This document shows positions 9,606 to 60,979 of a DNA stretch of 64,000 nt, in pieces. A program made the translations under genes and the position numbers. Below the pieces are notes generated by a model. It made no database searches. It was not told the DNA's origin and saw nothing but the letters and a program-made list of their open reading frames with translations. Numbering within the stretch: position 1 is the stretch's first letter; each line of letters starts with the position of its first letter. Origin of the DNA: Patescibacteria group bacterium. GTDB taxonomy: Bacteria; Patescibacteriota; Minisyncoccia; Phycocordibacterales; SBAW01. The stretch is from assembly GCA_028866155.1 (NCBI GenBank), contig JAGWIT010000001.1:165-64164 (forward strand), in the 5' to 3' direction.

Positions 9606-10288
9606 ACGAGTGCGCAGTTCTGCACATACGCAACCTCTTTACGCTTGCCTATATGCGCAAGCACGCGCTCGAGGCGCTCCCAATCGCTGTTTTTTTCTAT
9701 CTCCCACGAATGCCCCCACAGGTGGAAGACGCCGCCGTCTTGTGCAATTTCATCGAACAGTGTCGTGGCGAGCTCATCCCAATTGAGGTATCCGCTCAAA
9801 AATCTTTTGCCCATGTGCCGCGCTACCCCGAGCGCGTCGCTGTAATGCCGGTAGGCATGGATGGTCGTGGGCGCGGCAAACGGGTCGCCGATGCCGCCCT
9901 CGAAGCGCTCAACGGTGCGCGCGAACGTAAATCCGGCATCCTTGACCATTGCCTTGTGCGCTCCGATAAAGGCGCCGCCCGGGTAGCAAAAACTGCTCAC
10001 CGGAGATCCCAGTACATCCTCCAAAAACTTTTTAGAATCGACAATTTCCTGCCGCGCAACCTCGCTCGATACCTCGGTCAAGCGCGGGTGCGTCATGGTG
10101 TGCGCGCCTATCTCAAACGCGTGCGCCAACTCGCGCACTTGAGCGCCGGTGAGCCGCTCATCTGCAGGGATCTCCCGGCATTGCGGCGATATATAAAAGG
10201 TACCGCTCACTGCGTGCTTGCGCAGGAGCTCGGCAACGCGCATATCGAGGGCGTGTCCGTCATCCCAGCTGGTCGTTACGGTCGTCAT
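9602..10288 (-). CDS. Polysaccharide deacetylase (NodB homology, CE4 family)
   Basis: TSWDDG motif (the TFDDG equivalent), His motifs HTMTHP and HLWGHSWE. The stop overlaps the downstream ATG (ATGA at 9602-9605). There is a 1-nt gap to the upstream gene's stop. Confidence 0.7.
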   Translation of the reverse strand: MTTVTTSWDDGHALDMRVAELLRKHAVSGTFYISPQCREIPADERLTGAQVRELAHAFEIGAHTMTHPRLTEVSSEVARQEIVDSKKFLEDVLGSPVSSFCYPGGAFIGAHKAMVKDAGFTFARTVERFEGGIGDPFAAPTTIHAYRHYSDALGVARHMGKRFLSGYLNWDELATTLFDEIAQDGGVFHLWGHSWEIEKNSDWERLERVLAHIGKRKEVAYVQNCALV

Positions 10289-22928: not shown

Positions 22929-24221
22929 TTAATAACTCCGTAGTCTTTTTGCCTTTTCGTGCGTGCGGATGCGCTCGAGAGCTTTAGCCTCTATTTGGCG
23001 GATACGCTCGCGCGTGACGCCAAACTTTTTGCCCACCTCCTCAAGCGTGTGGTAGATGCCGTCCTCAAGACCGTGGCGCAGTTTGAGTATCTCGCGTTCT
23101 TTTGGCGAGAGTTCGTCGAGGATCTCCCGCAACTGGTCGGCCAAAATGCGGCGCGCCACCTCCTGGTCGGGCGAGAGAATTTTGTCGTCTTTGATGAAGT
23201 CGCCGAGCGTCGACTTGCCGTCGCCGTCATCGTCGCCGACCGGACTCTCGAGCGAGACCGTATCCTGATCTATCTTTTCTATCTGGTAGACCTTCTCGAC
23301 ATCGATGCCCATCTCAAGCGCTATCTCCTCGGCCAGAGGGTCGCGGCCGAGATCCTGGCTGAGACGCCGCGAGACCTGCTTGTACTTGGCAATGGTCTCG
23401 ACCATGTGTACGGGGATGCGGATGGTGCGGCTTTGGTCCGCCAAAGCGCGCGTAATGGCCTGGCGGATCCACCACGTCGCATAGGTAGAAAACTTGTAGC
23501 CTTTGGTGTAGTCAAACTTATCGACCGCCTTAAAGAGGCCGAGGTTGCCTTCCTGTATGAGGTCAAGCAAGGTGAGGTCGGGCGAGCGACCGACATATTT
23601 TTTGGCAATAGACACGACGAGGCGCAGATTGGCGCGCGCCAAGAGGTTCCTCGCCTCGCTGTCGCCCTCGGTGATGCGCTTGGCGAGATCGCGCTCGGAC
23701 TGCGCGTTGAGGAGCGGGTACTTGCCTATCTCACGCAGGTACATTTGTATCGAGTCGTACTGCGAGTCCGAGCGGGAGTAACCCTTCTCGGCTACCGCTT
23801 CATTTATTTCGAGCATGCCGCCGCCTTCGAGCACGTCGATGCCGGCGGTCGCGAACTTTTCATACAGCTCTTCAAGAAAGACCACGTCGCTCTCTATCGT
23901 CGGGAAGCTCTTGAGTATCTCGTCATAGGTGACGAAGCCGCGCTGGCGGCCGCTGGCCATCAGCGCCTCGGCCTTCTTGTCCTGCTCCTGCGCTTTTTTG
24001 AGGAGCTTGGGGCTCAGGGGCGAGACTATTTTCCCCGACGCTTTGGTGGTCCCGACCTTGCGTCGGGACTTAGACGCAAGCTTTGCCTGCCCGCGGATGC
24101 GGGACGCGGCCAGGGAGCGCCGCTTCGCGGCGCTAAGTCTAAATTTGCGCGCCTTAGCGCTCGCGGTTTTGCCCTTCCGCGATTTTTTGCCTGCCGCCTT
24201 CTTTTTCGCCATTTTCACCAT
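22929..24221 (-). CDS. rpoD: RNA polymerase sigma factor RpoD (sigma-70)
   Basis: Region 2 ([40 protein letters not shown]), region 4 HTH, and a Lys/Ala-rich N-terminus. The start is taken at ATG 24221 (MVKMAKKK). Confidence 0.85.
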
Positions 24222-24249
24222 TATATCACACAAGCCCCGCAGAGGGAAG

Positions 24250-25968
24250 CTATTTGCGCAGTTCCTGCTGGCGACGCTTGAGGAAAGAAAGCTTATGGAG
24301 CAGACTCTTCTGGTCGCTCCCTGTTTCATGCAGTTGATGCTGGACGAGGTTCATTTCTTCTTCAAGCTGGGAGCGCTCTATCGTATCGAATAATGATTGT
24401 TTAGCGGCTGCCGTTTCTTCCCCTAATGACTCAAATAGGAAGCGCAGCGCCTCGGCCTCGGGCTCCAATTGTTTTTGTATGGAGGCGTACCGCTCTTCGC
24501 CGAGCAAACCGGAGAGCTTCTTTTGCAATTCCGCGTCATGTGGAAAATAAAAGATGAGCATGCCGGCGGCTTTTTCGAGATTGGTGCGCTCCGCCGTTTG
24601 CAAGGGAGCGGGTTCTGTTTCTTCAATATGCAGCGCGGGTTTTTTTGCTACTTCTGCGCGGACCGCCGCCTCAGACACCTCTAGCCGCGAAGCAGTAATG
24701 CGGACAAAATGCTCCTGCTCTATCGCGCTCTGGAGCGCGGCAATAAGTGGGAGCACCCGGGACTCGGCCAATTTTTTATATGCGCGTTCGTCTTTGGCCT
24801 GCGGGCGCAGTACATCCAAAAAGAACTCTATCGCCGTTTTAGAGGTCCGCACCGCGGCCTTAAGAAGCTCGGGGTTCTCTTTGGCGACATCGGCCGGATC
24901 CTTGCCCTCGGGGAGGGCTGGCACTTTGACATCAAAGCCGTGCGAGTATGCCATCAGCGTGCTTTTGAGCCCTGCGCGTATTCCCGCCGAGTCGGCATCG
25001 AGCGCCAGCACCAAACGCTTGCTAAGCCTGCCGAGGAGCGAGAGATGCTCGTCGGTGAGCGCCGTGCCGGAAATCGCGACCGTAAATGGCAAACCCGATT
25101 GGTGAGACATCACGACGTCGAACTGCCCCTCGACGAGCAGGATGCAGTCAGCCTTGCGGATAAAATTTTTGGCGATGTGGAGCCCATAGAGCATGCGCGA
25201 TTTTTTAAACAGCGCGGTCTCGGGGCTGTTGACGTATTTTGCGGGTTCAGCCCGCGGCTCGGCATCAGTTTTGCGCGCATCGCCAGGCATATCTTCAAAA
25301 AATCTGCCTGAGAACGCGATGACCTTGCCGTTCATGTCAAACAGCGGGAACATGATGCGCCCGCGAAACCGGTCGTAGATATTCCCCGGGGTTGAACCTC
25401 TATCCGCGAGGTTCGACCTCGCGGGATCAATTGCCAGCCCAGCATCAACTATCTCGTCCTTTTTAAATTCGAGTGACGCCAAATGTTCCGTCAATTCGCG
25501 CCAGCTTGCCGGCGCATAACCGAGACGCCACGTCTTAGTAGTATCATCATGCACGCCGCGCGCGCGGATATAGTCGGCGACATCTTTGCGCCCTGCCAAC
25601 TTGGACTCAAAAAAAACCGTGGCGGCCTCAAGCACATCTTTCAATCTTTCGTCATGCTCTTTGTGCTCGGGTGCCGGAGCGAAGTTCTTTTTCAACTTCA
25701 CGCCCGCTTTTTCGGCAAGCTGCTTTAAAGCGGTCGGGAAGTCAACACCGTCCATTTTTTGGACAAAAGAAAAAATATCGCCCTTTTCGCCGCATCCAAA
25801 ACACATGTAGGTGCCCCTCTCGGGGCTTACCATGAACGATGGCGTGCGCTCTTTGTGGAAGGGGCACTTGGCGCGAAAATTCCTCCCCGCGCGCTGGAGT
25901 TGTACGTACTGCCCCACCACATCATTGATGCTGAGCTTATTCTTAATTTCCTGAACTTGGGAGTCCAT
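24250..25968 (-). CDS. dnaG: DNA primase
   Basis: CHC2 zinc finger ([11 protein letters not shown]...CFGCGEKGD) and TOPRIM domain. Classic dnaG-rpoD arrangement. Confidence 0.85.
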
Positions 25969-26104
25969 AGACTTATAGTCTACTCTTTTTGGTCCTTTCG
26001 CTTGTACTTGACATTAGTGAAAAGTAAATGTTAAAACAAAGCCGGAGTTCGTCTGGGGCGCTGTAATCTCTACAGCGTGAGAGGCAAATCCAATAGCAGG
26101 AGCA

Positions 26105-26806
26105 TTGAAAATGTCAAAGAAGAGAACTTCCTCTATCGTGAGCGGAGCAGGTTTCGCCGCTGCATTTTGGCAAACCCTAGATCTGGCTGTCCGACAACGA
26201 GACGGCACCGACGAAGATATCTATCACATAGGAACCGACGGCGGTTCTCGATTGATTAACCAGTTTGCCGACCTGATTATGGGAGCGAGATTGGTGACCG
26301 TCCGGGAGTGGCAAACGTGGCGAAAAGTAACCATCGGGACTCACTCGGGCTTAGCTGCGTTGGCGTGGGAAGCTCAAGGAACTTTCCAAGTCAAAAAGGG
26401 GTCGCATACGCAAATCCTCCTCGAATATCTTGCTGAAAAGGAACCCTTTGCTGTCGCTTCCTCTTCGCAAGAATTGGAGCTAATTGTGGTGACCGTGCGA
26501 GGGCTCGATTTATGCAATCCATATAGCTCCTATGCGTCCATCTGCATCCGGGCTCAAGAATTTGGATTGTCCCTTTGCCCGCCAGAAGTGGCTCTTCAGC
26601 TCTGTTTACAACACAATTGGGAGCCGTGGCTGAATTATGTGCTGATTGGCTCCGAATTGTTCCGTCTCAACCACGGTTACCCTAAGTACCTCTTTCAGCT
26701 CCGCAAATCAAAAGAAGAATCGCGGGAAATTGAATTTCGGGAAATAAGTTATGACTCGAATGAATTCCCCGGACATACACCTTTCGTATTTGTACGCAAC
26801 AAATAG
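26105..26806 (+). CDS. Orphan hypothetical protein (233 aa), compositionally atypical (lower GC)
   Basis: SD AGGAG 9 nt upstream, its own terminator, and no recognisable motifs. Codon usage differs from neighbours (TTA, ATA, AGA codons are used). Confidence 0.45.
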   Translation: MKMSKKRTSSIVSGAGFAAAFWQTLDLAVRQRDGTDEDIYHIGTDGGSRLINQFADLIMGARLVTVREWQTWRKVTIGTHSGLAALAWEAQGTFQVKKGSHTQILLEYLAEKEPFAVASSSQELELIVVTVRGLDLCNPYSSYASICIRAQEFGLSLCPPEVALQLCLQHNWEPWLNYVLIGSELFRLNHGYPKYLFQLRKSKEESREIEFREISYDSNEFPGHTPFVFVRNK

Positions 26807-26827
26807 ACCAAGCGTCATAATGTCAAA

Positions 26828-26860
26828 ACGCCGCCCGGGTAGTCCGGACGGCGTCTTTTT
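26828..26860 (+). terminator. Intrinsic terminator (bidirectional position between the orphan gene and the rpoBC end)
   Basis: ACGCCGCCCGG-GTAGT-CCGGACGGCGT stem (10 of 11 bp) followed by TTTTT. Confidence 0.6.
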
Positions 26861-26871
26861 CATAATAATTT

Positions 26872-33750
<6,879 letters not shown>

Positions 33751-34663: not shown

Positions 34664-35299
34664 CTACGCTTCGTAAAAAACGCTACGCTCGACCATGTCT
34701 TTGGTGAGCACATCTACAAACCGCATCATTATGGGGTAATTTTTTGCCGCTTTAACTTTATTCCCTAGATGCATCTCAAGAGTAACTTTAAGGCGCTTTA
34801 TCGATTGCTCATTAACCGGGTCGAGCAACTCAAAGAGCGGTTCAATTTTATCAAGCGCATTTGCGAATAGCGCTTCGGGGCTCAGGTGTTCTTCATATTC
34901 ATGCCACGCGTCAAAACCGACTCTTTGCAAAGACGGCGGGAGTAAAGCAAAAATTTCTTTTGCGGCTTCTTTCTCCCTTTCTTCATGTTCTTTTGTCTTA
35001 TGGTAGGTTACGGCGTCGCCGTATTTTATCTCTCCAAAATCATGAAAAAGGAGTATGCGGGACAACTTCCCTGCGTCGAGCGTCGGGCCAATGGGCTCAT
35101 GGAGCAGAAAATATTGAGCAAGAAATATGAGGCCGAACACGTGCTCGGCGACCGACTCATTGTGGGCAGCCAGGTCCCGCTTTGAGGCATAGCGGATGGT
35201 CCGCTTAAGTCCAAAAGCCACCCGCAGTTGATGAGCCTCTTTTAGAATCTCTTCATCTGACATATCCAGTACTTTTTTCATACAAAAAATCCGCACCAC
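34664..35299 (-). CDS. HD-domain phosphohydrolase (YfbR-like 5'-deoxynucleotidase family)
   Basis: H...HD...D motif set: ESVAEHVFG and LFHDFGEIKYGD. Confidence 0.65.
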   Translation of the reverse strand: MVRIFCMKKVLDMSDEEILKEAHQLRVAFGLKRTIRYASKRDLAAHNESVAEHVFGLIFLAQYFLLHEPIGPTLDAGKLSRILLFHDFGEIKYGDAVTYHKTKEHEEREKEAAKEIFALLPPSLQRVGFDAWHEYEEHLSPEALFANALDKIEPLFELLDPVNEQSIKRLKVTLEMHLGNKVKAAKNYPIMMRFVDVLTKDMVERSVFYEA

Positions 35300-60906: not shown

Positions 60907-60979
60907 AGCCACCGCGAGGAATCGAACCCCGGACCAACGCTTTACAAAAGCGCCGCTCTACCAACTGAGCTACGGTGGC
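60907..60979 (-). tRNA. tRNA-Thr (anticodon UGU)
   Basis: Reverse complement: GCCACCG-TA-GCTC-AGTTGGTA-GAGC-G-GCGCT-TTTGTAA-AGCGT-TGGTC-CGGGG-TTCGATT-CCTCG-CGGTGGC-T. This gives a 7-bp acceptor stem, a D arm, an anticodon stem-loop with TGT, and a T arm with GTTCGATTCC. CCA is not encoded. Confidence 0.85.

Follow-up and report, generated by a model that had tools for sequence, protein, structure and literature searches.

Variable proteins of diversity-generating retroelements (DGRs) are already known from bacteria of the candidate phyla radiation (CPR), as are remote targets for DGRs in general, and the gene analysed here adds a member. In the survey of Wu et al. (2018, PMC5758913), CPR VR classes were left as 'unknown' folds (UVR1-6), category g CPR targets were reported to carry PcfJ-like N-termini, and DGRs were found to act on remote targets >100 kb away. 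Roux et al. (2021, PMC8144416) described CPR clade-2 targets without recognisable domains, and novel C-type-lectin variants were suspected. It has further been proposed that conflict systems in multicellular bacteria use DGR-diversified lectin-fold domains to sense antigens (PMC10907252).

The gene is located in a stretch of 64,000 nucleotides (64 kb) from the metagenome-assembled genome of a Patescibacteria group bacterium, referred to in its full length as the window. Judged by homology, its product is related to proteins with adenine-only pairs of variable region (VR) and template repeat (TR) beside Avd and RT, and it resembles the CPR DGR targets described previously in being small and in having no recognisable domain or membrane segment (PMC5758913, PMC8144416). 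The window copy differs from CPR DGR variable proteins, however, in that it has no TR, Avd or RT within 64 kb and exhibits neither the conserved 3' end, nor the downstream hairpin, nor the excess VR variability.

The gene between rpoBC and dnaG

The coding sequence is present at 26111..26806 on the forward strand and encodes 231 amino acids followed by a stop codon; its product is 100% identical to the NCBI hypothetical protein KGH79_00110, encoded on a 78.7-kb contig. The open reading frame had been described in the first-pass annotation as 26105-26806 with 233 amino acids, and the ATG at 26111 is likely to be its start codon. The Shine-Dalgarno sequence AGGAG reported there is indeed present at 26098..26102 on the forward strand, 8 nt 5' of this ATG, and is kept as AGGAGG in the ortholog on contig L008. 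The gene is flanked by the divergent dnaG primase gene (24250..25968, reverse strand; Pfam Zn_ribbon_DnaG, DNAG_N and Toprim), after which comes rpoD (22929..24329, reverse strand; Sigma70 regions r1.1-r4), and by a convergent fused rpoB-rpoC gene of 2,292 amino acids (26872..33750, reverse strand), in which NCBIfam rpoB covers residues 4-1047 and NCBIfam rpoC residues 1070-2264 of one ORF. The placement between dnaG-rpoD and rpoBC is therefore borne out by Pfam and NCBIfam, with the addition that rpoBC is fused. The dnaG ORF, listed with its stop at 24250, overlaps by 80 nt with the rpoD ORF, listed with its ATG at 24329, and the real rpoD start may be located further downstream than this ATG. 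The neighbouring window ORFs encode RNR, HisRS, a DsbA-like protein, a PD-(D/E)XK nuclease, RpoD, DnaG, RpoBC and TrmD, as well as an HD-domain protein, an RNase II/R-type (RNB-domain) nuclease, SMC and DnaE, and only housekeeping genes were found among the 18 surrounding ORFs using Pfam.

A DnaG scan of species-representative genomes yielded 29 related Adlerbacteria/Paceibacterota loci, 23 of which contain both rpoBC and dnaG. In all 23 species rpoBC is followed directly by dnaG on the same strand, and none of them possesses a homologue of the window gene (tblastn, E<=1e-3). The rpoBC-dnaG spacer measures 47-106 nt in six species, where it usually consists of the rpoBC terminator hairpin alone, and extends up to 2.2 kb in other species, where it holds unrelated opposite-strand genes. 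These occupants include PaaX/Cas2-like genes (L015, L031) and GNAT-like genes (L016, L025), named by eye from sequence, together with genes for small membrane proteins. The spacer (L010-L036, L082) is a recurrent accessory-gene slot, and the window gene, as an occupant of it, is common only to the closest known relative. The ortholog from this relative, P0002, is a 70% identical protein encoded on the ~1-kb contigs L008 and L009; its gene sits in the same slot, convergent with the 3' end of rpoC, and shares the terminator, the Shine-Dalgarno sequence and a well-conserved leader with the window gene. The gene is therefore inherited within the sub-lineage and was not acquired by a single strain. 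The window gene is a single-gene, lineage-restricted insertion into the conserved rpoBC->dnaG->rpoD arrangement.

Horizontal acquisition, which the first-pass annotation had proposed, agrees with the absence of the gene from the site in the 23 relatives; the ortholog at the same site places the gene in a sub-lineage, and no mobility marks were found. No meaningful direct or inverted repeats flank the insertion, no integrase or transposase is encoded among the neighbouring genes, and an Rfam search of the whole window identified one tRNA only (60907-60979), far from the gene. The atypical composition given in support of acquisition is only partly upheld. The ORF has a GC content of 0.490 against a mean of 0.559 over 44 non-overlapping window ORFs (z -1.9; second lowest), a GC3 of 0.517 (z -2.0), and a synonymous-codon likelihood of z -2.0 against the same 44 ORFs. 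However, the HD-domain (YfbR-like) gene beside trmD (34664-35299, reverse strand) is lower still, with a GC content of 0.465 and a GC3 of 0.495, the lowest of the large ORFs, and GC3 spans 0.50 to 0.79 among apparently native window ORFs. The ortholog gene, with a GC content of 0.45, is similar to the short rpoC fragment beside it, with one of 0.43. The deviation is real but modest, and is not unique in the window.

The fusion of rpoB and rpoC appears not to be confined to this genome. The rpoC-matching part comprises ~1,200 amino acids here, and in eight relatives (L010, L013, L018, L021, L023, L033, L035 and L036) open frames of 1,831-1,983 amino acids extend from the stop codon of rpoC as far as the locus reaches. 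Given that these frames exceed the rpoC-matching part, the fusion appears to be a lineage trait of Adlerbacteria-like Paceibacterota.

A promoter-like element was read from the sequence at 26008..26037 on the forward strand, within the 142-nt divergent region common to dnaG. The promoter that had been claimed here has a perfect -35 hexamer, TTGACA, at 26008-26013, but its -10 is weak, either TTAAAA at 26031-26036 (17 nt) or TGtTAAAAC at 26029-37 (18 nt), and a promoter consensus scan called no promoter in the element; its ATGTTAAAA segment is kept in L008. A 5' leader hairpin (GCGCTGTA-atctc-TACAGCGT) is predicted by an MFE fold at 26058..26078 and works on the forward strand only. By inspection of two sequences, L008 retains the 8-bp stem despite two double (compensatory) changes and two wobble changes, which points weakly to conservation of the hairpin, and the leader (26040-26100) is more conserved relative to L008 than the coding sequence. 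Downstream of the gene, a hairpin with a T-run at 26825..26860 was identified from the fold and from relatives as an intrinsic terminator (-21 kcal/mol, z -2.98, 0/200 shuffles). The hairpin is separated by 20 nt from either stop codon, that of the ORF and that of rpoBC, and is retained in the ortholog with loop changes. Since an equivalent hairpin at the same position terminates rpoBC in relatives, and since T-runs are present on both strands, the terminator is bidirectional and is shared by the ORF on the forward strand and rpoBC on the reverse strand; it is as strong as the first-pass annotation had stated, but not private to the gene.

Family membership and predicted fold

A word-indexed search of 5.8e9 sequences recovered five relatives only; in this database, P0003 matches the window protein at E 3.5e-9 and the VR-bearing P0004 matches at E 6.3e-8 with 81% coverage and 31% identity. 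When 1.84 billion cluster representatives were searched exhaustively with a profile, 5,393 clusters, defined at 50% identity, were recovered at E<=1e-3, of which 3,485 are kept at E<=1e-10 and 575 at E<=1e-30. Family members are mostly 160-250 amino acids long and have a common C-terminal domain of ~155 amino acids. A second indexed search, using an 80-sequence profile, returned 1,873 proteins, all without Pfam domains and named 'hypothetical protein', and the named members are all from Patescibacteria or Parcubacteria. None of the 80 family members matches Pfam, the window protein has no match in Pfam, NCBIfam or PADLOC and a best PHROG match of E 0.24, and no model of the family is present in Pfam, NCBIfam, PADLOC or PHROGs. 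The FGE-sulfatase, Lectin_C and DUF1566 profiles matched neither the window protein (Pfam, NCBIfam) nor the 80 family members (Pfam), and a scan of viral contigs with the family alignment found no relative.

The window protein and the family have in common the motif IxxRAQE(L/F)GLxLCPPE...L.LQ...FVF, and on sequence grounds the protein is identified as a member of the CPR DGR variable-protein family. The gene had been taken for an orphan without recognisable motifs, a description that fails because its product belongs to this huge family, of which it is a divergent member. The protein is 21-32% identical to the rest of the family and is among its most divergent members, departing from many near-invariant residues (G161A, P162L, R165C, Y168H, M181S and P183L).

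These departures could reflect a changed or decaying function, and they are one reason to consider the gene a functionless, decaying remnant of what was once a DGR target, along with its low GC3, its poor codon fit and the loss of its DGR partners. This explanation is improbable, however, as two lineages whose synonymous divergence is saturated have both kept the ORF intact, along with its Shine-Dalgarno sequence, leader and terminator, and the differences between the window ORF and its ortholog are strongly biased towards third codon positions (64/28/135 for the first, second and third positions), with dN = 0.21 and dS saturated. The window ORF is a real coding gene under purifying selection.

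A second explanation, put forward in the first-pass annotation, is that the window gene serves in anti-phage defence or abortive infection and was acquired horizontally. In its favour are the insertion itself, the atypical composition and the restriction to one lineage, together with the antigen-sensor proposal for DGR-diversified lectin-fold domains (PMC10907252). Even so, a defence role is very unlikely: PADLOC returned 0 families at E<=1, Pfam and NCBIfam revealed no effector domain (NTPase, nuclease, protease or any other), the gene stands alone among housekeeping genes with dnaG and rpoBC on its flanks, and the other occupants of the slot in relatives are unrelated small genes.

Several long members of 509-545 amino acids (L106 5777-7369, L108 497-2134, L127 5756-7357 and L159 110-1639) have a PcfJ-like domain (PF14284) joined to the N-terminal side of the variable lectin-fold domain, and so share the PcfJ-like N-terminus of category g CPR targets. 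The gene for another member, P0005 (L005), is followed by a P-loop ATPase gene (L005 1274-2494) that has a VirB4/TraG-type look from sequence only. The window protein possesses no obvious signal peptide or membrane segment by eye. Its N-terminus, MSKKR followed by the hydrophobic IVSGAGFAAAFW, was considered as a candidate signal peptide, and an N-terminus of this kind is absent from most family members.

The fold of the window protein was modelled using AF2. A first model from 5 sequences (pLDDT 65) was replaced by one from a 57-sequence alignment, which has a pLDDT of 77 and a pTM of 0.66. AF2 helices and family alignments delimit a predicted N-terminal helical region, residues 1-65 (26111..26305, forward strand), with helices at residues 12-29, 34-41 and 45-58 of low to medium pLDDT; this is the portion least similar to other family members. 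The conserved family domain, residues 66-231 (26306..26803, forward strand), has a predicted C-type-lectin-like fold, with a pLDDT mostly of 75-94 from residue 66 onward that dips to 60-70 over residues 181-210. The Foldseek comparison recommended by the first-pass annotation was performed against PDB and BFVD and gave no significant match, and no PDB sequence scored below E 0.65 in a profile search. The assignment of the C-terminal domain to the C-type-lectin-like fold is therefore held with moderate confidence, not firmly, because Foldseek gave nothing significant.

Characterised lectin-fold proteins differ from the window protein in several respects. Mtd from the Bordetella phage BPP-1 (1yu0) and TvpA from Treponema denticola (2y3c) have no detectable sequence similarity to the window protein, which is also without an FGE-sulfatase Pfam match and, unlike these two proteins, has a VR-equivalent that is a beta-hairpin-rich segment in the AF2 model. 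Compared with Mtd, the window protein is much smaller and has no trimerisation or tail-fibre part. Other eukaryotic and bacterial C-type lectin-like domains (e.g. the Bd2740 C-terminal domain 8oks, intimin/invasin D-domains and NK receptors) are 3-15% identical to it, with no significant Foldseek match, and no Ca2+ or carbohydrate motifs can be claimed in the window protein.

DGR features in the family and in the window

The P0004 gene (L001) adjoins IS3-type transposase, bAvd and RVT_1 genes. The final ~130 nt of the gene recur 360 nt downstream, with 17/17 of the aligned differences at template adenines, such that template AAC codons become GAC, TAC, CGC and others in the P0004 gene. This arrangement of a VR in the target gene, TR, Avd and RT is a DGR signature. 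The RT linked to P0004 is called as two ORFs (L001 9532-10549) with an in-frame stop near 10042, an identical P0004 protein, VR included, is present on five contigs, four of them shown to be from different samples, and the DGR copy of L001-L004 sits beside an IS3-type transposase and a Bro-N gene. The copy in L001 may be inactive.

To extend the comparison across the family, 80 metagenome loci were fetched using the family alignment. A TR copy that differs from the gene almost only at template adenines (e.g. 20/20, 22/22, 16/16) is present in 13 of the 80 loci, most of which have Avd and/or RT alongside where the contig reaches, and one further locus has Avd only, at the contig end. Among the 15 loci flanked on each side by at least 2.5 kb, a cassette is present in 4 and absent in 11. 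The family is the main small variable-protein scaffold seen here beside Patescibacteria DGR cassettes. DGR-linked members end in ...CG(C/T)CGCAAGTAG, followed by CTTGG/CTTTG-rich hairpins. T/G-rich stretches of this type lie just past the stop codon of the target gene in L001 (8622-8690) and in L094, L096, L101, L103, L140, L144 and L164, and they fold into G.U-rich hairpins on the coding strand only. The CGCAAGTAG end and the CTTGG/CTTTG stretch may constitute the target-recognition element of this DGR clade, in analogy to phage BPP-1 with its IMH and hairpin.

The window copy was examined for the same features. On neither strand of the 64-kb window did blastn-short or an adenine-tolerant scan detect a template-repeat copy of 26561-26830, and tblastn with the L001 RT and Avd probes, which match other loci at 1e-20 to 1e-83, found nothing in the window better than E 0.3. 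The window gene ends in ...GTACGCAACAAATAG, followed by a plain intrinsic terminator, and both it and its ortholog lack the CGCAAGTAG end and the CTTGG-rich hairpin. The VR-equivalent, residues 185-224 (26663..26782, forward strand), was mapped by alignment to the codons that are hypervariable and adenine-templated in 11 DGR-linked genes, and the 19 most consistently templated columns were used to compare identity. The window gene and its single ortholog on L008 are identical at 11/17 (65%) of the would-be variable columns, compared with 67% in the scaffold. L103 and L144 are identical at 3/19 (16%) of variable columns compared with 79% in the scaffold (Fisher p=0.005), and other DGR-linked pairs exhibit 26% versus 67% and 32% versus 54%. 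The test is not clean, because the DGR-linked pair L001/L140 reaches 53% at variable columns versus 67% in the scaffold, and it rests on a single ortholog. The VR-equivalent stretch carries indels relative to the ortholog, and 6/18 of its codons at VR-equivalent positions are of the NNC type, compared with 57% in the pooled set (p=0.08). The window copy shows no DGR features within 64 kb.

The window covers 64 kb of the genome, and the gene might instead be an active remote target of a DGR located elsewhere, with its C-terminal 40 residues periodically rewritten. Remote DGR targets are documented (Wu et al. 2018, PMC5758913), the 11 of 15 well-flanked family loci without an adjacent cassette would agree with such an arrangement, and members without a DGR in the locus (L098, L106, L114, L124, L126, L131, L145 and L007) keep the DGR-type 3' end, suggesting that trans targets may be common in the family. 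The window copy, however, has no such end and no hairpin region, relative to the 70% identical ortholog it is no less conserved at the would-be variable positions than in the scaffold, in a stretch that carries indels, and its VR-equivalent codons tend to be of the NNC type less often than in the pooled set, a difference short of significance. Remote diversification of the window gene is unlikely, and a DGR is probably absent also from the genome beyond the 64-kb window.

Proposed role and meaning for the family

The preferred explanation is that the window gene is a single-gene insertion in the rpoBC-dnaG spacer that has a promoter-like element and a ribosome-binding site of its own and shares the rpoBC terminator. 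Its protein would combine an N-terminal helical part with a C-terminal C-type-lectin-like domain, in a family that CPR DGRs use as a variable, ligand-binding target protein. The window copy is not coupled to a retroelement within the 64 kb and undergoes ordinary mutation under purifying selection, making a fixed-specificity binding protein the most likely product. The window protein is probably, then, a stand-alone, fixed-specificity member of the DGR family that would bind a ligand through its C-terminal lectin-fold surface, the same surface that its relatives hypermutate. More tentatively, the gene may represent a DGR-born scaffold that was 'frozen', in that the retroelement was detached, the specificity was fixed, and the gene was inherited vertically in an Adlerbacteria-like core-genome slot.

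If the frozen reading is true, much of the family of >5,000 clusters may act without a DGR, for which it is relevant that 11 of the 15 well-flanked loci have no adjacent cassette and that some also lack the target-recognition end, and the family would be a major class of Patescibacteria lectin-fold binding proteins that has escaped annotation. An apparent orphan becomes a member of a defined class, so that it need no longer be ranked, probably wrongly, among defence candidates. More is gained from the side results than from the gene: the size and unannotated status of the family, the lectin-fold assignment for a CPR VR class, the accessory slot and the rpoB-rpoC fusion. A very large family is exposed that is covered by none of Pfam, NCBIfam, PADLOC and PHROGs, and its VR domain, left as 'unknown' in the published survey, now has a C-type-lectin fold assignment of moderate confidence. 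Both the rpoBC-dnaG accessory slot and the conserved fusion of rpoB with rpoC can serve as markers of the lineage. Members that have lost the DGR, the window protein among them, are natural 'fixed' variants, and could help to find binding partners in episymbiotic CPR bacteria.
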